Translations under genes and position numbers: made by a program
Virus record (IMG/VR): IMGVR_UViG_3300029288_004137
Location: 64,001-128,000 of that record
DNA length: 64,000 bases
Direction: 5' to 3' (one strand)
From: a virus
Taxonomy: Duplodnaviria > Caudoviricetes
The notes under the pieces: generated by a model
The model's database searches: none
Told to the model about the DNA's origin: nothing
What the model saw: the letters and a program-made list of their open reading frames with translations, nothing else
Part shown: positions 4,738 to 64,000 of the stretch, piece by piece
How the letters are laid out: every line of letters begins with the position of its first letter
Position numbering within the stretch: the first letter of the stretch is position 1

Positions 4738-5277
4738 TCAAAGACCCATAGTATCAGAAACTTCGGAGATATCCGAAGTATCAGAAACTTCCGAATCATC
4801 AGAAACTACCGATCCGTCATCCAAAAAAGATTCAGAAACTTCTACTTCCGAATCATCATCATTGTCATTGTCATCATCCAAATCCTCGGAAACCTCGGAA
4901 ACCTTTACGGTATCCGTATTCGTTTCCGTTACTTCTTCGGTAACGACGGGAGTAGACTTCCTTGCCTTTTCCCTTTCCCCTTCCGCCTCAAAATCCCGAA
5001 TCATATCGATAGCCTTTGTAAGGCTAGCAACCTCGACGACACAAGGACGTTCATCGCCTTCGGGGGTGACAATGACATCCACGCCTTTGACAACCATCTC
5101 AACTCCAAAGGTCTTGGAATTTGCCTTGTTATCAAAGTCACAAGAGAAGAACAACTTTCCCTTGGGCCCTTCAACCTCGAAGATTCCATCCTGATCTTCA
5201 CTGTCACCATTAGCGGTGAGACAAATACCTACATCATTCATCCGAAAAATCTTATCAAGCGCACTGTCCTTTCTCAT
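4738..5277 (-). CDS. Hypothetical protein with acidic C-terminus
   Basis: SD aaagga, promoter 5325-5353 upstream; visibly more GC-rich than flanks. Confidence 0.7.
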   Translation of the reverse strand: MRKDSALDKIFRMNDVGICLTANGDSEDQDGIFEVEGPKGKLFFSCDFDNKANSKTFGVEMVVKGVDVIVTPEGDERPCVVEVASLTKAIDMIRDFEAEGEREKARKSTPVVTEEVTETNTDTVKVSEVSEDLDDDNDNDDDSEVEVSESFLDDGSVVSDDSEVSDTSDISEVSDTMGL

Positions 5278-5438
5278 AACAATTTCCTTTCTTAAGGTTA
5301 TTAAATTTAACTAATCTACAAACCATCATACCATACTTTTTTTAGGTTGTCAAGAGAAAAAGTGTTTCGAAATGTTTTTCCTTTTTCAACCGTTCATGCC
5401 TTAAGCATACCACAACTTTTTTCAAATGTCAAGAGAAA

Positions 5439-5466
5439 AACGATGGGAAATTAATTTCCCATCGTT
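5439..5466 (-). terminator. Intrinsic terminator
   Basis: Palindrome AACGATGGGAAATTAATTTCCCATCGTT followed by a T run on the minus strand. Confidence 0.75.
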
Positions 5467-5471
5467 CTCCC

Positions 5472-5774
5472 TTGTGCTATGCTATAGCAAGCATAATCCG
5501 TTATTAAAAACCTAAAGATTCACGGATTTACAAAATTCTTTAGGCTTATATTGCCTGCTTAATCTACTTTACAGGAAGATAACATATGCAGGCTAATATA
5601 TGTTATCCGCTTTATTGTGTTATAAAGGAAAAACTAATAAGTGCTTTATAACACAATAAAAATGTATACTATGATAGAGATGTACGAAAAAATATGTACC
5701 TCATAGTATAGTATTAAAATTACCCGTATGGGCGACTGCCCTATTTATCAATGTGCCACGGGCAAACAACACAA
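5472..5774 (-). ncRNA. Candidate ~300-nt structured ncRNA with two pseudoknots
   Basis: Terminal helix, five internal hairpins, two loop-downstream pairings; lies between a promoter and a terminator with no sense ORF. Confidence 0.7.
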
Positions 5775-5955
5775 TTCTTTTTCAATCGTTCATGTCTTAA
5801 TCATACCATAACTTTTTTCAAATGTCAAGAGAAAAATTTTTCAAAATGTGAAATGTTTTTCTTTTTCAATCGTTCATGCCTTAAGTATGACATACTTTTT
5901 TTCAAAAGTCAAGAAAAAAGTGAATGGCAAAATATTTTTATTTTAAGTGCAATTA

Positions 5956-6213
5956 TCACAAATATTTATATCCACTCCTCTTTTCTTCTTCTTCTTTTTC
6001 TTCCTTCTCTCTTTCAAATTCAATTCTGGCATTAAAGAGATTATCTTCAGCTTCATAAATTGGTTTTCTATCGAGATAATATTCATATTCTTCAATAAAA
6101 TGAGGACCATGCTCATCATTAAAACCAGGAATAAATTCCATAATATCTTCTTTATATTTTCTTTTTGCCAAAAGCAATTTATACTCTAATTCAATTATTG
6201 TTGATAATTTCAT
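5956..6213 (-). CDS. Hypothetical protein
   Basis: Coupled to the upstream ankyrin gene. Confidence 0.55.
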   Translation of the reverse strand: MKLSTIIELEYKLLLAKRKYKEDIMEFIPGFNDEHGPHFIEEYEYYLDRKPIYEAEDNLFNARIEFEREKEEKEEEEKRSGYKYL

Positions 6214-6641
6214 TTAATTATTATCCTCTCCAATATTAAGTATTTAATATAAAGATTGTCAATCTGAAAAAACAATTCTTTTAATTCCATAACAGAATGT
6301 AAAGAAAGTAAATATTCAACCATATTAAAATGTTTATTTTCTGCCACTCTTTTTAAAAGATTACCACAACCATTAAAAAGAAGATGAAAATCAGCACCAT
6401 GCTCAATCAAACATTTGACAACATCAAAACGATTGTAAAATGCTGCAAACCATAAAGGACTATCGTTTTCAGCATGAATATTGGCACCATGCCCAATCAA
6501 ATATTTAACAATATCAAGATAGCCCTTTTCCGCGGCCCATCTTAAAGCAAGATCATCTTCAACATGAATATTATATCCATTTTCAATATAATATTTAACT
6601 TCTTGAATATTATTATTTATTACTGCATCAACGATATTCAT
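6210..6641 (-). CDS. Ankyrin-repeat protein with conserved C-terminal tail
   Basis: ALRWAAEKGYLDIVKYLIGHGANIH repeats; tail ELKELFFQIDNLYIKYLILER. Confidence 0.9.
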   Translation of the reverse strand: MNIVDAVINNNIQEVKYYIENGYNIHVEDDLALRWAAEKGYLDIVKYLIGHGANIHAENDSPLWFAAFYNRFDVVKCLIEHGADFHLLFNGCGNLLKRVAENKHFNMVEYLLSLHSVMELKELFFQIDNLYIKYLILERIIIK

Positions 6642-51963: not shown

Positions 51964-53967
51964 TTATTTTAATAATTCATATTCAAAAAATTTAGGTCTC
52001 ATATTATCTATATAAAATTGTTTTAATAATTGTTTTAATTCTTCTACCTTTGGAAAAAGAATATGTGCTCTCCATAATTTACCATTTCCTTCTTTATCAT
52101 ATGTTTCAATATTATATAAACCATTAAGATTAGTTTCTTTTACTAACTCAATATATATTTCCCATATTTTTGTCTTTTTCAAATTATCATTTAACATTGT
52201 TTCTCCAAATTTCCATATTTTTCCTTCTGAAGAACATTGATTATAATGAGTACATAAAGACCATAATAAACAATTTTGTAAAAAATCTTTATCTTTTTGA
52301 TATTTGGTTCCACCATCAGAAGTTTTATAAATAGTATCTACTATCCTATAATCTTTTTCTCCAATTGTTCCACCTTTTTCTGATATTTCATCTCTACATA
52401 CACAAAATAAAGGTAAAACATTGATTAAATTATCTTTATTTACCCATTTTTTGCCATATTTTTCATTATCATTTAAACTTCCTGTAAGTCGAGGAGATGC
52501 AAAAGAATAATTTCTTGCTTCAACAACACATATACCATTTTCTTTACCATCATTTGAATATAATTCAGAAATTGTTTTATAAACTTTTTTAACTTTAAAT
52601 TTTCCTTCAAAATCACTATCAAACAATATTGATTCATTTTCAATATCTTTATTTCCCCAATGAATTAAAGCAATTGCACTTTCACCTGCATTGAAATATT
52701 TTTTATTGCATAAATAAGATTCTTTAACTTCTTTATCTATTAAATGAGTTGTTTTCCATATTTTAATTGGTCCATAATGAATATATGAATAAATATCAAA
52801 ATACTTAAAGGCACTAAATACAAACTGGTGATCTAAATCAGAACCTCCATTTTTCATCTGTGCATGAACCCAAGTTTTTCCTACTTTCTTATCCGTTTTA
52901 TAATTTGAACCTCCATTCTTATTAGAATTAAGTTCGGCATATGGTGGGTTTTCTAAAAATATAACAGCTAATTTATTAACATTATTATTTATTTTATATT
53001 CTTTTATTTTATTTTGATAATATTTAACACCTTTCTCTGATAAAGCATCTATAATATTTACATTAGATAAATTTCCAAATCTGATATTAGCAGTAAATGC
53101 TTCAGCTTCATTTATAGTTCCTAAAATTAAATGTGAATATACATCTTCTTTAAATTGACTTTCTAAATTACCTACACCAGTAGACCTATCAACAATGACA
53201 TAATCATCATAACCTTCTTTTTTTGATTGTTGTATTGCGTTTTCTACATATTGAGTTGATATTTTTACATATTGTGAAGGTGTAAAAAAAGCCCCTTCAA
53301 TCTTTTGAACATATTTTTCATTCATTTTATCATTATTAAGAATAAGTTTATTAATATTTACTTTTTTAAAATCAAATGGTTTAAACCATCCCAATACACC
53401 TTCTTTAAGTTTTTCATAAGCTTCCATTTTTTCTTTAATTAGAAATACTTTATAAATATTTTGAATAACTTCTACTAAATCAACATTTTCATCTTGTAAA
53501 TCATATTCATAAGTATTTTTATTATCTTCAAAATATTTAATAAATTTTTCTGGTGTTTCATACCAATCAAATTTTTCTATAAAATTAAAATGACAATCAT
53601 AAACATTAACTAAAAAAGTTTCTAATTCAACATATATTCTATAATAAGGAACTTTTTCACCCTTATTTTTTAATCTATTTGGAATTATTTGATAAAGTCC
53701 CTGATCTGCTTTTATTAGACCACCACCTTCTTTTTCATTTAATTTACATTCAATTATTGCATTTCCAACTATTCCATCACTTTGATTCTTATCCATACTT
53801 TCAGGATTTAATTTAAAATTAGTTTTTTGTGTTAAAAAAACATAAAACACTCTTTGCCCTGCTACTTCTTGTTTTAACATAGCATTAACAAGAGCACCTT
53901 TTGTATATTTTAAATAATTTTCCTTATTAATACTTTCTAAAATATCTTTATTTTTTTTAGCACTCAT
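51964..53967 (-). CDS. Type IIG-like restriction-modification fusion
   Basis: SDG...IECK nuclease motif, GAFFTP, DRSTGVGNL, NPPY. Confidence 0.75.
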   Translation of the reverse strand: MSAKKNKDILESINKENYLKYTKGALVNAMLKQEVAGQRVFYVFLTQKTNFKLNPESMDKNQSDGIVGNAIIECKLNEKEGGGLIKADQGLYQIIPNRLKNKGEKVPYYRIYVELETFLVNVYDCHFNFIEKFDWYETPEKFIKYFEDNKNTYEYDLQDENVDLVEVIQNIYKVFLIKEKMEAYEKLKEGVLGWFKPFDFKKVNINKLILNNDKMNEKYVQKIEGAFFTPSQYVKISTQYVENAIQQSKKEGYDDYVIVDRSTGVGNLESQFKEDVYSHLILGTINEAEAFTANIRFGNLSNVNIIDALSEKGVKYYQNKIKEYKINNNVNKLAVIFLENPPYAELNSNKNGGSNYKTDKKVGKTWVHAQMKNGGSDLDHQFVFSAFKYFDIYSYIHYGPIKIWKTTHLIDKEVKESYLCNKKYFNAGESAIALIHWGNKDIENESILFDSDFEGKFKVKKVYKTISELYSNDGKENGICVVEARNYSFASPRLTGSLNDNEKYGKKWVNKDNLINVLPLFCVCRDEISEKGGTIGEKDYRIVDTIYKTSDGGTKYQKDKDFLQNCLLWSLCTHYNQCSSEGKIWKFGETMLNDNLKKTKIWEIYIELVKETNLNGLYNIETYDKEGNGKLWRAHILFPKVEELKQLLKQFYIDNMRPKFFEYELLK

Positions 53968-56337: not shown

Positions 56338-58767
56338 TTATGAACATTTACCCCAACCACACTGAGAACAGGATACACATCCGTCTATATAAATTAACTG
56401 CGATCCACAATCAGGACAATATTGCTTGTCTGCTTCTTCTCCATTTATAATGTATTTCTTCAAAACTCTTGCTAAAGTTTTATTAATACTCGTAAAATCA
56501 GAATCAGGATCATCTTTATTTAACTGCTCTACCAAGATTCTTGGTTTCGCTCCATGTCTTAAAGAATTAGAAATTAATCGCGTTAATGTTCCATGATTAG
56601 GATTTTTAAATGTTTTCACAACGTCAAGAACAAATCCATCATTTTCTTTATCAAAAATAAGATCATAATGACTTGGTTTTGTTTTATAAGAATGCTTTAC
56701 AAGAATACCTTTTTTATACGCAGTTGGTATTCCTACAAAAAAAGATCTTCCTGCAAACACTTCATATGGTTTACCATTCATTAATCCAACAAAAACAATC
56801 CATTTTTTACTTTTTACGTTAATGTGATGTATATCACATTCAAGTTCTTTCGGTCTTATTACTGCATCAACTTGATGAAAATTTGTAGGTTGTTCTAACA
56901 TATCTTTTGATACAAGAACTCCCTTCCTACATCCCTCAACAAAGACGGTAATTCCTTTTAATTTTTTTGACCACGCTTCTTCATATATTGTTCCTACGGT
57001 TTCAGATGTAGTCCCTATTGGAAGATTTATTGTGCTTGAAATTGACTGATCTATATGTCTTTGAATTGCAGACTGCATTTCTATTCTTTGTTTCCATGGA
57101 ACATTATTGCTTTCAATAAAAATATCTGGTGTATCATTTTTATTTGTTACATTTTGATAATCTTTAATATTCTTGTGAAACACATCGTAAGAAAACCATT
57201 TTTCTCCATCTTCAGTTACTTCTGCATTTAAAAACTTATCTTGCTCATCAAAATTAAGTTTTCTTCTTCTCTTGTAAGAGTTTCTGAAAATAGGTTCAAT
57301 ACCAAAACTTGTTTGTGCAATAATAGATACACCTGCTGTTGGCGCATTTGTTAATATCGATATATTTCTTCTACCAAAGTTTTCCATATCTTTAATAACA
57401 TCTGGAGTAAAAGAATTAAAAAATTTGCAAGTTCTTTCTTTCTTCCAATTAAAAATTGGAAAAATCCCTCTTTCAATACCTAATTTAATACTTTCTTGAT
57501 ATGCACCTAATTTTAATTCTTCATATATCATATCTGTCATTTCTATCGCTTCAGGACTTCCATAAATCATATTTAAACGAGACAAAGCATCAGCTAACCC
57601 GTTAGTTCCCAATCCTGTTCTTCTCCCTTCCTGAGCAGATTTAATAAGTTTCTTCCAAATTTCTTTTTCATCTTCTTCGTCTGTAATTTCAATTAAATTA
57701 TAAAGTTTTTCAATTTCTAAATCAATTAAATCGTCTGATAAACGCATTGCTACAGAAACAACTTTTCTAAAAGTATTCAAATCAACAAATGAATTAGGTG
57801 AAAAAGGATTAACAATAAAATTCTTTAAATTAATTGAAATAAGTCTGCAAGAGTCATATCCACTTAAAGGTATTTCTCCACAAGGATTTGTAGTTAATGC
57901 TTCGAATCCTTCTTCTTTATAGAAATGAGCAGGAAGATAATTTGTGATATTATCCCACATTAATAATCCTGGATCTCCTGTTTTTGTAGCACAATTTATG
58001 ATTTTATTCCAAAGATCTAACGCTTTTATAGTTTTTGTATATTTAGGTTCTTTTGAATTTATTGGCCATTTCAAAACAAACTCTTCATTGTGCTGAACAG
58101 CTTCCATAAAACTATCTGTTAATTTAACAGAAATATTCGCTCCTGTAACTTTTTGTAAATCTTCTTTTAATGAAATAAATTTTTCTATGTCTGGATGCTG
58201 AACATCCATTGATATCATTAATGCTGCTCTTCTTCCGTTTTGTCCTATTAACTTACAAACAGAAGAATAAAAATCAACAAATGACCAGGCACCTGTTGAT
58301 GTACCAGCACTATTATTAACTGCTGCTCCACTTGGTCTTAATGTAGAAACATCAATTCCTACTCCACATCGTCTTTTAAAAAGATTTGCTAAATCTCTTG
58401 CAGAGTTAAATATACCAGACATTGTATCCAATGGAGAATCTACAACAATACAATTTGATAAAGAAGAATTGCTATAACTATTCCCTATCCCAAACATTGG
58501 AGATCCTTGCGGAATAATATATTTAAAATCTTTAAAATAAGAATAAATTTCATCTTCTGTTAAAGGTTTCATATAATTTGATTCAATTCTTGCAAATTCT
58601 TTTGCAAGTCGATGATGCATATCATCAGGTGTTAATTCCAAAAAATTACCTTTTTTATCTTTTAAAGCATACTTTTTCATCCACGTATCTGTAGCAAGAT
58701 GATCATCATCAAAATATTTTAAAGTAGCTTCCTTTACTTCATCTAAAGAATAAAACTGTTTTGTCAT
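56338..58767 (-). CDS. nrdJ: Class II (B12-dependent) ribonucleotide reductase
   Basis: SLSNC, GVGID, TNPCGEIPL, APT, SISSTIN, C-terminal CPDCG..CSQCG; no beta subunit nearby. Confidence 0.9.
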   Translation of the reverse strand: MTKQFYSLDEVKEATLKYFDDDHLATDTWMKKYALKDKKGNFLELTPDDMHHRLAKEFARIESNYMKPLTEDEIYSYFKDFKYIIPQGSPMFGIGNSYSNSSLSNCIVVDSPLDTMSGIFNSARDLANLFKRRCGVGIDVSTLRPSGAAVNNSAGTSTGAWSFVDFYSSVCKLIGQNGRRAALMISMDVQHPDIEKFISLKEDLQKVTGANISVKLTDSFMEAVQHNEEFVLKWPINSKEPKYTKTIKALDLWNKIINCATKTGDPGLLMWDNITNYLPAHFYKEEGFEALTTNPCGEIPLSGYDSCRLISINLKNFIVNPFSPNSFVDLNTFRKVVSVAMRLSDDLIDLEIEKLYNLIEITDEEDEKEIWKKLIKSAQEGRRTGLGTNGLADALSRLNMIYGSPEAIEMTDMIYEELKLGAYQESIKLGIERGIFPIFNWKKERTCKFFNSFTPDVIKDMENFGRRNISILTNAPTAGVSIIAQTSFGIEPIFRNSYKRRRKLNFDEQDKFLNAEVTEDGEKWFSYDVFHKNIKDYQNVTNKNDTPDIFIESNNVPWKQRIEMQSAIQRHIDQSISSTINLPIGTTSETVGTIYEEAWSKKLKGITVFVEGCRKGVLVSKDMLEQPTNFHQVDAVIRPKELECDIHHINVKSKKWIVFVGLMNGKPYEVFAGRSFFVGIPTAYKKGILVKHSYKTKPSHYDLIFDKENDGFVLDVVKTFKNPNHGTLTRLISNSLRHGAKPRILVEQLNKDDPDSDFTSINKTLARVLKKYIINGEEADKQYCPDCGSQLIYIDGCVSCSQCGWGKCS

Positions 58768-59228
58768 TTCTTAACTCCCGATTTAAATGCCTTATATTTA
58801 CTATTAAGTAATTTCTTTGTATTGTTTTCTGTTTGTTCATTTATTTCACTTATAGAAAGATTTAACTTTTCTAACACTTTGATTGATACATTTGATGTAT
58901 CAATCTCCATTGGATATATAATACCATCTATACCATTGCGATTTTTAGCAATAAACATTCTTCCTACGTTTTTATTCTTATCTTCAATAGTTCTTGATAC
59001 TGAAAAAATAAAATCTGCAACAAAACATTTGTTAAATGCTTCACTTATTGATTCCATTGTTATAACCTCAGCATTAAGACCAGAATTATGAGTTAAAACA
59101 CCGTTTGAAAGAAAATACATGTGCTCCGATTCTATAGTTATATCAACAGTATTTCCTTCACCATATAATTCTATACTTTCAATTTCATCTATAATAAAAT
59201 CATTTTTATTCAATTTATGTTTGTTCAT
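58764..59228 (-). CDS. dnaB: Helicase C-fragment: IntC (59085-59228) + extein
   Basis: VDIT...LTHN/SG; ADFIF, IAKNRNG. Confidence 0.9.
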   Translation of the reverse strand: MNKHKLNKNDFIIDEIESIELYGEGNTVDITIESEHMYFLSNGVLTHNSGLNAEVITMESISEAFNKCFVADFIFSVSRTIEDKNKNVGRMFIAKNRNGIDGIIYPMEIDTSNVSIKVLEKLNLSISEINEQTENNTKKLLNSKYKAFKSGVKK

Positions 59229-60321
59229 TCACTTCACCTTTTAAAATAAAAGCAATACACTTTTTTAATATTTCAACCGGATATTCTTTATATTCTTTTT
59301 CTTTAATTCTCAGCACTTCATACCCTTTGCTAATCAAAATTAAAGTTTTAATTTTATCTTTGTTTTTAATTTTATCTTTTTTATGCCAATATTCTCCATC
59401 AAATTCAATTATTTTATTTTTATATATAAAATCAACCATAAAATAATATCCACCACCTAATTCTGAATATTCTTTGAATTTAAATCGCTTTTCTTTATTA
59501 AGACTAGCATATTTAACCAAATTTTCTTCTATTTTTGATAATTCTACAATTTTTTTAAATAACTTCTGTGATATTTTTGAATAAGTTGTTGAACTTAATC
59601 TTGCTCCTTTATATGACATTTCCTTCATATGTTTTTTATATTTTCTCCATTCTTTTTCTCCATCTTTTTCTCCATATTTTTTAATATACCAATTTTTTGT
59701 AAATCTTTTTCTTTGATTTTCTCTTCTATTTTTCCAAATCATATATCCTTCTTCTTCACCGTGATTTTTTATTAAATCTTCTAACTTTAATCCATTATCC
59801 CATCCACCTTTATTTTTAATTGATTTTCTCCATTTTTTAAGGTATTGCTCTTGTCTCTTTTTGCCTTCTTCTTCGCCATATTTTTCTATTTTTGATATTA
59901 AAGAAGTACATGCTTTTGATTTACAAAGATTTTTCCAGGACTCCTCTCCATATTTTTTAATATAATCTTGTTTATTAATCGATGATTTTTGATTTTTTTC
60001 TTTAAAAAATCTCAACCCAAGCGCTTCTCCATATCTACTTTCCATTGATTTCAAAGAACTACTATCATTTTTAAAAATTGTTTTTGATTTTATTATTCGA
60101 TCTACCCAAGGTAAAGGAACCTCATAAATAATCATTTTATACAACAAAGGAAATAAACTATATTTGTTCCAATCATTTTTTTTACAGACCTCTAATATAT
60201 TCCACAATTCTTCCTTTTGTTTTATAGAAAGTTTATTTTTATCTATATCTTGAAAATATTTACAAGAAATAAGATTTTTTACTTCATCCATCCAATTTTC
60301 ATTTTTTAACAAACAGTCCAC
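59215..60321 (-). CDS. Free-standing Vsr-like endonuclease between split-intein halves
   Basis: KYGEEEG repeats, SKISQKLF, VDF...IEFDGEYWH. Confidence 0.85.
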   Translation of the reverse strand: MDCLLKNENWMDEVKNLISCKYFQDIDKNKLSIKQKEELWNILEVCKKNDWNKYSLFPLLYKMIIYEVPLPWVDRIIKSKTIFKNDSSSLKSMESRYGEALGLRFFKEKNQKSSINKQDYIKKYGEESWKNLCKSKACTSLISKIEKYGEEEGKKRQEQYLKKWRKSIKNKGGWDNGLKLEDLIKNHGEEEGYMIWKNRRENQRKRFTKNWYIKKYGEKDGEKEWRKYKKHMKEMSYKGARLSSTTYSKISQKLFKKIVELSKIEENLVKYASLNKEKRFKFKEYSELGGGYYFMVDFIYKNKIIEFDGEYWHKKDKIKNKDKIKTLILISKGYEVLRIKEKEYKEYPVEILKKCIAFILKGEVNEQT

Positions 60322-61633
60322 TTCCTTTCTCCAACCCTGTTTCTATCGATTTGAAATTTCCATCAATTACTGGAAACATATGCTTTTCAGAACATATAAT
60401 TTCTTTGCCAGATTTTAATTTAATCTTAAAGAGTTTTTGGTAATTTTTGTTTATATCAATCACTTTTTTCCATCCTACTTGTGTTTCTACTTCACTTCCT
60501 ATTTTTATCTTATTAATTTCTGTTTCAAAAATTTTGTCTCCTTCTCTTGTATATAGTAAAGTATTTTCAAAAAAGCATCTATTTGTTTGCGAAGCGGTAT
60601 ATACTGGACAATTAAATATTTTCGCCAATCCCCTCAAATCTTCATAAATGCTCTCTAAATCAAATCTTTTTTGTTCATAAGATTTAACAGAAGCTAATAG
60701 ATCTGCATAATCTACTATAATCATTCCTACATTTATTCCTCTTCTTTTCATTTTCTCAAGATGATTTCTAATTGTTATAACTGTTGCACCTTTGGTTGGA
60801 TATTCTTTTATTATTAATCGTCCTTTAACTTGTCCAATTTGATCAAAAACTTCATTTTTAAATCTTCCCAATTCATTTAGGGTAAATTTTGTTATGCAAC
60901 TATCATACCTTTTTCCTATAACAGTTTCTTGCAATTCTAAAGTATAATGAACAACATTAATACCTTGTAATAAAGCAGAAGCACCTAAATGAACCAAAAC
61001 CATCGATTTACCTGCACCTGTTGGAGCAATAACAACTCCTAATTCTTTTTTACCAAGTCCACCCTGTAATATTGTATCTATTTCAGACCATCCAGTTGAT
61101 ACCGGATCTCTATATTGAGGAAGATATCTTTCTTCAAAATCCTTAATATATTCATATCCCATATCAGAATCAGTCCCTAAAATTAATGCTGATGAAATAA
61201 GTTTATTAATTTCATCAAATGAAGATTTATTCATTAAGGGAATTGCTGCAAGAAACGCTTCTTTTAGTTTCTGCTTTTTACAGAAATCAACAGATTGTTC
61301 TTTTATATAATCTGATCCTTCTGGGAGATCTTTGCTTGATAATATTCTTGAAAAATATTCAATTACTTGCTTATTCACATTATTATTATCACTTTCTTGA
61401 GTCCTTATCATTGTTGTTAAGGTATCAAGAGAAGGATGAACACCATACTTGTCTGTATAATCATATAATTTTTCAACAAATGTCTGAAGATAAAGTGGTT
61501 CCAAAAAAGAAACTGGCATAACTTCACGCATTCTTTCACAAAAACTTCTGTCAAGAACCATTATTTTAACAAGTTTTTCTTGAAATTGAATTCCATAAGA
61601 AGAAAAACTTGTTTTTTCATTATCGTTTTTCAT
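60299..61633 (-). CDS. dnaB: DnaB/gp41-like helicase N-fragment + IntN (60299-60577)
   Basis: APTGAGKS, TLE, VDYADL, ASQTNR/CFFENT...CSEKH. Confidence 0.92.
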   Translation of the reverse strand: MKNDNEKTSFSSYGIQFQEKLVKIMVLDRSFCERMREVMPVSFLEPLYLQTFVEKLYDYTDKYGVHPSLDTLTTMIRTQESDNNNVNKQVIEYFSRILSSKDLPEGSDYIKEQSVDFCKKQKLKEAFLAAIPLMNKSSFDEINKLISSALILGTDSDMGYEYIKDFEERYLPQYRDPVSTGWSEIDTILQGGLGKKELGVVIAPTGAGKSMVLVHLGASALLQGINVVHYTLELQETVIGKRYDSCITKFTLNELGRFKNEVFDQIGQVKGRLIIKEYPTKGATVITIRNHLEKMKRRGINVGMIIVDYADLLASVKSYEQKRFDLESIYEDLRGLAKIFNCPVYTASQTNRCFFENTLLYTREGDKIFETEINKIKIGSEVETQVGWKKVIDINKNYQKLFKIKLKSGKEIICSEKHMFPVIDGNFKSIETGLEKGSGLFVKK

Positions 61634-62600
61634 TTTCTAAAACAATCCTTCTTAAATTAACAAACAATCCATCCCAATTAATACTTTCAAATCCATCAGC
61701 CATCATCATTGTTCGTAATTTACTTACATTTAAAAATATTTTTTCTACCTTTATTTTATTTTCAATTTTTTGAATTGAATCAAATGAAATTTGAACGGGA
61801 TAAAGAGATGTAATTTTGAAATTTAAAACTAATTTATCTTTATTATCTTTTATCTGATCAAATAATTTAAATTGTTTTTCTGACCGATTTATATAATCAA
61901 TAATATTATTGATAAAATATTTTTTATCTTCAATTAAAAAAGGAAATCTTTTAGCAATTGTTTTCAATCCTGCACCAAGAATACCTTCTATATTATCGCT
62001 ACTATCTCCAACTATTGATCTAGCTAAAGCAAAATTTTCTGGTGATATTTTATATTTATCTTTTATAGTATTCTTATTATGAATTTCTTTTTGAGTTGGT
62101 CTTACAATAATTGTAGAATTATCACAAAGTTGATAAAAATCTTTATCACTACTTAATATTACTTTATCATAATCTTTTAAAGATTCTGTTTTGCACAAAT
62201 AAGCAATTAAATCATCTGCTTCAACACCATCTTCAACAAATTGAGACACTGGCATTTCATTTAAATAAGAAATTAAACGAAGTTGTTGTTTTTCTTTATT
62301 ATCAGAAACTTCTGATTCATCCATATTTTTAGAAAATCTATTAAGTTTTATTATTGGTTTTCTATTTTCTTTATATTCTTTATAAATTTGTTTTCTTCTT
62401 ACAGAACCCTTGGAAGAATCCCAGCATACAAAGACTTTGCTGCATTTAGTGCTTTTTATATATTTTTGAAGAATCTTAATAAATCCAACAACACCACCAA
62501 TTGGTTGACCACTATTTTCTGATATTGTTGGATTTACTATCCAATTTGTGATAAAAATATTTAATCCATCGATTATAAGAATTCTTTTCTTATTACTCAC
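61620..62600 (-). CDS. 5'-3' exonuclease / RNase H (FEN family)
   Basis: IIDGLN, YKENR, EADDLI, SSDKDF, GDSSDNIEG. Confidence 0.92.
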   Translation of the reverse strand: MSNKKRILIIDGLNIFITNWIVNPTISENSGQPIGGVVGFIKILQKYIKSTKCSKVFVCWDSSKGSVRRKQIYKEYKENRKPIIKLNRFSKNMDESEVSDNKEKQQLRLISYLNEMPVSQFVEDGVEADDLIAYLCKTESLKDYDKVILSSDKDFYQLCDNSTIIVRPTQKEIHNKNTIKDKYKISPENFALARSIVGDSSDNIEGILGAGLKTIAKRFPFLIEDKKYFINNIIDYINRSEKQFKLFDQIKDNKDKLVLNFKITSLYPVQISFDSIQKIENKIKVEKIFLNVSKLRTMMMADGFESINWDGLFVNLRRIVLENEKR

Positions 62601-63730
62601 AAAGAACCTTCCAAAACGGGAGGTAACTTATCTAACTTACGAATTATATCTGTTTCTACTAAATAATTAATATCTTTTTTAAATTCATCATTTGTCTTTA
62701 ACATTTCAATGAAGGATTTTCTTTGAAATTTCCATTCCCCTCCACTTTTACCTATAAAAGACCCCCAAGAACCAGATTTCGTAAAAGATTCAGATAAAGC
62801 ATCATATAAACTGTCTTCATTTTGAACACCAACAGGATCTATGCCCCATTGAATTTTAAATTCACATTCTCTACCTAATGAACCAAATCGTGATTTTTTA
62901 ATCTTAACTTTAACTCTATTCCCAAAAATATGACCTGATTCATCAGATTCTAAATTTGCTTTAGAATCTGATTTTGTAAGCCATATCCTAAGAGAATACG
63001 CATAAAGTACTGATTTACCACCTGGGGTAAAATAAGGATTGACCAACATATCCCCTGGATTTTTTGGATTTATATTGGTTTTTAATTGATTTAGAACTAA
63101 TAATGTTGATTGTGTTTTCCCTATAGGAATTATTAATTTTTTCATCCCAAGAGAAACAACACGAGCTGTTTGAGATATCGTTCCACCCAATTCAAAATCA
63201 CCTTCTGAATCTGCTTTTGATGGTGTCATTGCCAATGAATCCCATATAAAAAACCATTTTTCATTTGGAATAGAAAGAAGTGTTTCGATAATTTCGAATA
63301 CCTCCTCAATTGAGGAAGGCTGAATATACTGAAGAACACTTATATCACACCCAGATCTTTTTAAGAAATCTGGATCTATCGCATTTTCTGAATCAAAATA
63401 AACAATTTTATACCCTTTCTTTTGAGCATTTGCAGCTATTTGTGCAGCAAAAAAACTTTTCCCTGTAGATTCTAATCCAGCACATTCTGATATCTTTCCT
63501 ACAGGAATTCCACCTAACTTTCCACGGCATATAATCGCATCTAACCATGTAGAACCAGTTGGTATCCAATCTATTACTTCTGTTGGACTTTCTTGTTCTA
63601 AATCATAAGAAATTTGTGTTCCTGCTTTTGAATTTATTAAATTTCTTATTTGTTCAGAAGATAATCTTCCAGTATCAGTATTCTTTATCTCTTCTTCATT
63701 AGAAGAAATAATCTTTTTTGCTTTTGCCAT
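62597..63730 (-). CDS. recA: RecA/UvsX recombinase
   Basis: GLESTGKS, DSENA, DSLA, NQLK, TPGG. Confidence 0.92.
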   Translation of the reverse strand: MAKAKKIISSNEEEIKNTDTGRLSSEQIRNLINSKAGTQISYDLEQESPTEVIDWIPTGSTWLDAIICRGKLGGIPVGKISECAGLESTGKSFFAAQIAANAQKKGYKIVYFDSENAIDPDFLKRSGCDISVLQYIQPSSIEEVFEIIETLLSIPNEKWFFIWDSLAMTPSKADSEGDFELGGTISQTARVVSLGMKKLIIPIGKTQSTLLVLNQLKTNINPKNPGDMLVNPYFTPGGKSVLYAYSLRIWLTKSDSKANLESDESGHIFGNRVKVKIKKSRFGSLGRECEFKIQWGIDPVGVQNEDSLYDALSESFTKSGSWGSFIGKSGGEWKFQRKSFIEMLKTNDEFKKDINYLVETDIIRKLDKLPPVLEGSL

Positions 63731-63747
63731 AACTTCTCCTTAAATAA

Positions 63748-63777
63748 GGAAGGGAGGAATTATAATTCCTCCCTTCC
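63748..63777. terminator. Palindromic hairpin upstream of recA
   Basis: GGAAGGGAGGAATTATAATTCCTCCCTTCC. Confidence 0.7.
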
Positions 63778-63794
63778 TCTATTTTTAGTTTAAT

Positions 63795-64000
63795 TTAACC
63801 GTTTTGCAGATCTTTATAAGCAGCATCAATTGCATCTTCTTCTGTTGTTAAAGATTTATCTTCTGTTGAAGGTTTATCTTCAGATGATGGTGAAATTTCT
63901 AATCCATCTTCAGATGATGGTGATAGATATGATTCAAGAATTTCTTCAATCTCTTCAGTTGTCTTTAAAATAAACAACTTAGAAAAATCTGGATATGCAT
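63795..64000 (-). CDS. Acidic C-terminus of a gene running off the window, possibly ssDNA-binding protein
   Basis: Acidic Ser-rich tail; position upstream of recA. Confidence 0.4.
   Translation of the reverse strand, partial: AYPDFSKLFILKTTEEIEEILESYLSPSSEDGLEISPSSEDKPSTEDKSLTTEEDAIDAAYKDLQNG

Follow-up and report, generated by a model that had tools for sequence, protein, structure and literature searches.

A candidate stand-alone early non-coding RNA gene with possible tandem pseudoknots in the genome of a large uncultured phage

Close to the start of a 64,000-nucleotide window of phage DNA (the whole stretch that was analysed), the minus strand carries a unit that we model as a stand-alone early gene for a non-coding RNA (ncRNA), a reading that is probably correct and in which the locus would give rise to a compact transcript of ~360 nt. 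The window corresponds to bases 64001-128000 of the 209,974-bp record of an uncultured phage with a GC content of 27.7 %. Twenty-two tRNAs were found in the whole record using ARAGORN, and the phage encodes RNA ligases of both the Rnl1 and the Rnl2 type and an HNH endonuclease, as well as Pol III alpha, a DnaB helicase, a GroEL-like chaperonin and a ribonucleotide reductase. The ncRNA locus lies within a minus-strand accessory region rich in tRNAs, small ORFs and strong sigma-70-type promoters, and its neighbouring genes are all on the minus strand, as is the ncRNA unit itself.

A sequence-only reading of the window had proposed that the structured RNA is bracketed by a promoter and a terminator on the minus strand. 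We confirmed this arrangement, with a near-consensus promoter on one side and a strong terminator hairpin on the other (Table 1). Given the geometry of this host-type early promoter, initiation would occur at about A5793, 7 nt past the -10 element, and transcription would end near 5434, where the hairpin and its U-tract lie, from which we infer a transcript of about 360 nt. In the transcript, the terminator hairpin of 17 bp (-23.4 kcal/mol, z -6.4) is followed by the U-rich tail, and its core (5466-5439) is a perfect 14-nt palindrome. Within the 5' arm of this hairpin (window 5451-5472, minus strand) there is also an SD-like AAGGGAG placed 4 nt ahead of AUG-GGA-AAU-UAA, and ribosome loading at this site would compete with formation of the hairpin.

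Table 1. Features of the ncRNA locus and its surroundings (positions in the window unless marked as genome).
Feature	Position	Strand	Description
Early sigma-70-type promoter	5800..5828	minus	TTGACA, 17-nt spacer, TGn-TATGAT; 11/12 consensus positions, TG extension
Predicted 5' leader	5775..5793	minus	Initial transcribed sequence AUGAACGAUUGAAAAAG, common to other early cassettes
Structured RNA core	5472..5774	minus	~303 nt; extent as in the sequence-only reading
P1, terminal helix	5774-5766/5480-5472	minus	9 bp including 2 G-U
P2	5765-5757/5728-5720	minus	9 bp including 2 G-U; encloses GGGC/GCCC 5741-5738/5733-5730
P2 domain	5720..5765	minus	15-nt asymmetric internal loop and GGGC-AGUC-GCCC hairpin; GC-richest part
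P3	5710-5701/5674-5665	minus	10 Watson-Crick bp plus inner GUAC/GUAC helix; domain 5665..5710
P4	5660-5644/5627-5611	minus	17-18 perfect Watson-Crick bp, 16-nt loop; domain 5610..5661
P5	5608-5598/5587-5577	minus	11 bp; in P5/PK1 domain 5546..5608
PK1 candidate	5593-5588 : 5558-5553	minus	Complementarity of loop GCCUGC and GCAGGC
P6	5545-5537/5518-5510	minus	9 bp; in P6/PK2 domain 5495..5545
PK2 candidate	5528-5522 : 5501-5495	minus	Complementarity of loop AAUCCGU and ACGGAUU
Intrinsic terminator	5434..5471	minus	17-bp hairpin, UUAA loop, U-rich tail into -35 of next promoter
Upstream empty cassette	5835..5915	minus	Promoter 5912-5884, leader, weak AT hairpin, no cargo
Downstream empty cassette	5356-5435	minus	Promoter 5432-5404, leader, weak AT hairpin, no cargo
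Downstream promoter	5353-5325	minus	Next after empty cassette with promoter 5432-5404
179-aa orphan gene	5277-4738	minus	Driven by promoter 5353-5325, downstream of ncRNA
Shared initial transcribed sequence	5779-5799; genome 53565, 54197, 55230, 56140, 58610, 60693, 69432, 69828, 72125	minus	

The promoter and leader of the unit are one instance of a module present in at least nine copies between 53.5 and 72.1 kb of the genome. The cassettes share TTGAC-17-TAnnnT and then the initial transcribed sequence (R)GCAUGAACGAUUGA, and a hairpin ending in UUUUUCUCUU precedes each promoter. At least seven other cassettes carry ordinary ORFs with clear SD-AUG starts; since these are driven by the same promoter-plus-leader module, the unit appears to have been built to be transcribed. 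Composites of a terminator and an early promoter that shuffle their cargo have been described in T4-type phages (PeSL; PMC2839356, PMC4122927), where the terminator stem-loop is directly followed by the early promoter and the pair is repeated around the cargo of accessory regions. The terminator of the ncRNA unit likewise abuts the promoter at 5432-5404, in a module repeated around variable cargo, and the repeated motif in the phage under study is UUUUUCUCUUGACA plus the conserved leader. Because this hairpin-promoter module is repeated and empty cassettes flank the ncRNA, we consider the architecture PeSL-like, although PeSL cargo consists of ORFs whereas the cargo here is non-coding, and the module here has in addition a conserved initial transcribed sequence. 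The empty cassettes look like footprints of PeSL-like cassette recombination. With the +1 position placed 7 nt after the -10 element, transcripts would begin exactly at AUG-AAC-GAU-UGA, a possible leaderless mini-ORF of 3 codons.

Six other ORF-free elements of 179-366 nt, closed by nearly perfect stems of ~22-31 bp, are found at genome positions 57741-63866 and at 2113-2355 of the window; the set also includes a shorter element of 83 nt with a 16-bp stem, and several of its members begin with AAGUUAA. The architecture of these elements is unlike that of the ncRNA, and they have no sequence in common with it.

The same cassette arrangement could instead reflect a block, placed between PeSL-type promoter cassettes prone to recombination, that acts only in cis, as a 3' end or insulator that terminates and stabilises read-through from the upstream operon, with its promoter copy being a by-product of cassette shuffling. 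We regard this as unlikely, though it is an explanation to be taken seriously. The upstream operon extends from Rnl1 through an 85-aa gene and lacks a terminator after that gene (5956), and transcripts from upstream should thus enter the block; however, a near-consensus dedicated promoter also points straight into it. A U-run follows both P3 and P6 in terminator-like fashion, but an insulator needs far less than 300 nt, the GC-rich P2 domain and the two loop complementarities have no role in termination, and no hairpin is held in common with the other terminators of the genome. The presence of empty promoter cassettes on both sides of the block, and the cargo-shuffling composites of T4-type phages, are nevertheless in keeping with such an origin of the promoter.

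Each of the helices P1 to P6 claimed in the sequence-only reading was located on the minus strand, at the positions in Table 1. Folding of the full transcript gave pairing probabilities of 0.80-0.99 for P2, P3, P4, P6 and the terminator (P2 domain, 0.86-0.90 and -16.1 kcal/mol; P3, 0.80 and z -3.25; P4, 0.99 and z -6.6; P6, 0.97), and P1 and P5 were weakly predicted, with mean pairing probabilities of 0.27 and 0.42, respectively. The pairs of the terminal helix are present, but its low probability weakens the claim that it forms. The core is modelled as at least four robust hairpin domains (P2, P3, P4 and P6) plus a fifth that is ambiguous in conformation. The 362-nt unit as a whole had an MFE z of -6.3 on the minus strand, and its GC-adjusted MFE was the most negative among 233 windows sampled across the 210-kb genome.

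The plus strand of the locus folds almost equally well (z -6.05). It had been argued that G-U pairs present on the minus strand only reveal the strand of the RNA. Six such pairs are real, but they do not identify the strand, since the minus strand is the better folder throughout the genome owing to its being the G-rich coding strand; the mean difference between strands was -12.7 kcal/mol (sd 11.4), and at the locus it was just -5.6 kcal/mol. We assigned the strand from the direction in which the promoter, terminator and adjacent genes run.

The near-equal fold of the plus strand and the three stems that are perfect palindromes would also fit hairpins that have arisen recently or that act in the DNA. 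P3, P4, P5 and the terminator core are all perfect Watson-Crick palindromes and could be protein-binding or cruciform sites, for instance in a transcription-activated replication origin or a recombination hotspot. The palindromes all differ in sequence, however, and neither iterons nor repeats of a binding motif are present. The four strong promoters found within 600 bp, two of them without cargo, speak for such an element; against it, there is no inflection of GC skew or strand switch at 69.5 kb, the switches being near 20, 52, 74 and 85 kb. The G-U pairs inside P1 and P2 become A-C mismatches in the other strand, and the pseudoknot complementarities have no rationale at the level of DNA. We judge an element of this kind quite improbable.

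The most distinctive claim for the RNA was that it contains two consecutive H-type pseudoknots. Both complementarities between a hairpin loop and a downstream segment were found exactly where they had been placed (Table 1). Their geometries are sterically possible, with L1 of 4 nt, L2 of 0 and L3 of ~19 nt for PK1, and L1, L2 and L3 of 8, 3 and 8 nt for PK2, and they are statistically unusual. A duplex equal to that of PK1 was obtained in 6 of 5000 shuffles and, among 5000 genomic pairs of equal geometry, in one; for PK2 the counts were 81/5000 and 118/5000. The pairing of PK1, however, is also satisfied without a pseudoknot: a nested hairpin (5600-5573/5568-5547) includes all 6 bp of GCCUGC:GCAGGC, which is flanked by the additional complementarity UAUAUU/AAUAUA, and this hairpin is part of the MFE structure both of the isolated domain (-15.5 kcal/mol) and of the full transcript. 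When the body alone was folded, GCAGGC paired instead with GCUUGC in a nested helix. The helices of the sequence-only reading by themselves gave -65.1 kcal/mol, compared to an MFE of -83.4 kcal/mol, and addition of the pseudoknot duplexes (-10.2 and -7.2 kcal/mol), with the pseudoknot penalty excluded, only equals the latter value. Tandem H-type pseudoknots formed by the P5 and P6 domains are plausible candidates in the structure.

A structured element at 2557-2723 of the window (minus strand) likewise displays AAUCCGU, the heptamer of the P6 loop, in a hairpin loop, and AUGGAUU in a second loop. The heptamers occur 6 and 11 times in the genome, which is about the frequency estimated from base composition, and the link between this element and the ncRNA may therefore be due to chance.

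Competition between pairings raises the further idea that the locus is a conformational switch or attenuator controlling read-through into the 179-aa gene. P5 and the nested GCCUGC:GCAGGC hairpin are mutually exclusive, as are P1 and P7, alternative structures of similar energy exist, and the mini-ORF with its SD-like sequence is embedded in the 5' arm of the terminator. Inspection nonetheless found no antiterminator pairing with the terminator arms, no riboswitch or T-box of Rfam 15 matched, and the promoters at 5432-5404 and 5353-5325, which lie between the terminator and the gene, make control from upstream redundant. This explanation strikes us as very improbable.

With its predicted size, a candidate long-range closing helix, hairpins and then consecutive candidate H-type pseudoknots, the ncRNA gene product most closely resembles, by architecture, the body of a tmRNA (RF00023) without the tRNA-like domain, and distant relatives of the phage have tmRNAs among their tRNAs. 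The loci of the nearest Rnl1 homologs hold both tRNAs and tmRNAs. Two of these, L025:2016-2392 and L029:4337-4708, are bona fide tmRNAs situated in tRNA clusters, with Rnl1 homologs that are 44-46 % identical to that of the phage; the tmRNAs of the relatives are 372-377 nt long (ARAGORN) and score 98 bits with Rfam. About 1 kb from the tmRNA in the tRNA region of one relative, a TnpB gene (OrfB_IS605/Cas12f-like) is found at L025:3352-4824.

Membership of the tmRNA family can be dismissed. It had been noted that the RNA lacks the ends of a tmRNA, and indeed there is no acceptor, T-arm or CCA end, and no tmRNA was found by ARAGORN in the genome; lowering its threshold to 60 % returned meaningless permuted guesses only. 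The tmRNA model matched a single site in the genome, a tRNA-Ala at 21 bits, and left the ncRNA unmatched even at E<=10. Three-frame translation revealed no mRNA-like region with a resume codon and a tag frame that closes with a hydrophobic Ala-rich tail, and the ncRNA showed no sequence similarity to the tmRNAs of the relatives. The proteins that flank the ncRNA are not homologous to those beside the relatives' tmRNAs, and the phage has no SmpB. As for the closed ring typical of tmRNA, P1 and the two candidate pseudoknots are present in the sequence, with a low probability for P1 and nested competitors for PK1.

We also considered descent from a tmRNA, by decay or remodelling with loss of the tRNA-like domain. 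The phage is without a tmRNA of its own, in a setting where Rnl1-relative loci encode one, and in the ~303-nt core a candidate closing helix is combined with H-type pseudoknots that may form in tandem; but the tRNA-like elements, tag frame, model match, similarity, synteny and SmpB are all missing, and perfect stems speak against a decaying pseudogene. Such a descent appears highly improbable.

A small protein encoded by the locus is scarcely credible: a 24-codon GUG-initiated frame from 5772 and open stretches of 26-32 codons exist, but these stretches are not longer than AT-rich sequence predicts, have no preceding SD and lie in the most stable helices, and the other cassettes show clear SD-AUG starts. 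No ORF of more than 40 codons is present on either strand of the unit, and readthrough of TGA or TAG yields none that is convincing.

No family could be assigned to the RNA, as the sequence-only reading had stated. At gathering score, only tRNAs matched Rfam 15 in the window and no family matched at the locus, the families covered including RNase P, 6S, SRP, group I intron, T-box, riboswitches, GOLLD, ROOL, raiA and HEARO. Relaxing the search to E<=10 gave nothing credible at the locus either, the best match being to the model of a nematode snoRNA, which scored 28 bits where the gathering score is 65. An ncRNA of the retron, DRT or Y-RNA type that works with a partner protein was considered and rejected, as the 210-kb record contains no match to RVT_1 or TROVE; genes for a reverse transcriptase, Ro60 or SmpB were not found in it.

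We built two covariance models, one of the 3' domain (R1) and one of the 5' domain (R2), which matched only themselves in the phage genome. Searches with R1, R2 and nhmmer at the loci of the nearest Rnl1 relatives gave no match, and R1 produced one chance-level match only in 151 Campylobacterales genomes. Comparison of the ncRNA DNA with five genomes that carry a 667-aa protein (see below) likewise resulted in chance-level matches only, and blastn of 4800-6400 against 50,697 GenBank phages detected no homolog. Exact patterns of the core and of the promoter module were absent from IMG/VR. In JGI metagenomes, the promoter-module pattern had 73 single matches, compared to ~50 estimated by chance, none of which was in a promoter context. 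Elsewhere in the phage genome, there was no paralog, gene fragment or antisense match beyond the level of shuffled sequence (the top blastn score was 38.3 bits, which 2 of 30 shuffles reached).

Copies of the phage that were assembled independently (Logan, ENA and JGI) do not differ from one another over the RNA. An apparent C5543U polymorphism, which would give a G-U pair, was discarded, since it sits 5 nt from the end of its contig and a second contig from that sample, which overlaps the first, disagrees with it. The remaining mismatches are a run of N. Judged by these sequence comparisons, the ncRNA is a singleton and founds no demonstrable family.

By context, the closest counterparts of the ncRNA are rnaC and rnaD of T4 (species 1 and 2), although we place it neither with these T4 RNAs nor with tmRNA. 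Both the T4 RNAs and the unit described here are phage-encoded and non-coding, and lie in or beside a tRNA cluster with a homing endonuclease, near RNA ligase genes; rnaC and rnaD are annotated as small stable RNAs, while the RNA here is predicted only. The T4 RNAs are 119-139 nt long and are immediately beside tRNA-Arg, in contrast to the ~360 nt of the ncRNA, with its own promoter and terminator. Nothing was found at rnaC or rnaD when R1 and R2 were run on the tRNA region of T4, the best R1 match (E 0.75) being elsewhere in that locus. GOLLD and ROOL are large, highly structured RNAs of phages and prophages, of unknown function and often next to tRNA genes, and are two to three times longer than the ncRNA. 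Their Rfam models gave no match at gathering score and none that was credible at E<=10.

The RNA would be a new addition, so far with a single member, to the structured phage RNAs of unknown function that are encoded close to tRNA genes. Many unexplained non-coding stretches lie among the tRNA genes of large phages, and the function of T4 rnaC and rnaD has been open since they were first described. The locus offers a clean candidate in this respect: it is framed by a promoter and a terminator of its own, its predicted structure is the strongest among the genome windows sampled, and pseudoknots may form in tandem. Being a singleton from a phage lineage without sequenced relatives, it cannot yet define a family.

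If the stand-alone ncRNA gene is transcribed as proposed, its product would be compact, nuclease-resistant and made at the start of infection, and could act in trans. We infer that it may bind protein, as a decoy or a scaffold, and so serve host take-over or anti-defence, because the locus lies among early genes, tRNAs and RNA-repair enzymes. Binding of a protein is favoured over base-pairing as an antisense RNA, since no extended complementarity exists elsewhere in the phage and the single-stranded loops are largely consumed by internal pairings. Binding of a host factor, if true, would add an RNA-based tool of take-over or anti-defence. A bolder proposal, which we hold to be improbable, is that the RNA is the first of a new class of phage early ncRNAs, in which a compact ~300-nt tandem-pseudoknot core, resembling the body of a tmRNA devoid of its tRNA-like domain and produced as soon as infection begins, sequesters a host RNA-binding or RNA-cleaving factor. 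Targets such as S1, RNase R or a ribotoxin-type defence nuclease might then be envisaged, and a sequestering RNA, if true, would complement the tRNA and RNA-repair arsenal of the phage.

The proteins of the phage have few close relatives. Its nearest Rnl1 homologs reach 46 % identity at best, and IMG/VR contains no close relative of its Pol III alpha. The protein of the 179-aa gene downstream of the ncRNA (P0001) had no homolog among 5.8 billion proteins, and a scan of related loci with P0001 was also empty; an ankyrin neighbour protein matched only ankyrin repeats in giant-virus bins. The C-terminal half of the 179-aa orphan is extremely acidic and rich in Asp, Glu and Ser, and the protein could be an early protein of the DNA-mimic type. 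A 667-aa protein encoded at 51964-53967 of the window (minus strand) belongs to no Pfam family, and is 62-80 % identical to proteins in assemblies of Campylobacter, Helicobacter, Brachyspira and 'Holosporales', where its homologs adjoin a resolvase or an IS1595 transposase. From these sequence matches its gene looks like a mobile one, and its distribution provides a weak hint to the host of the phage.
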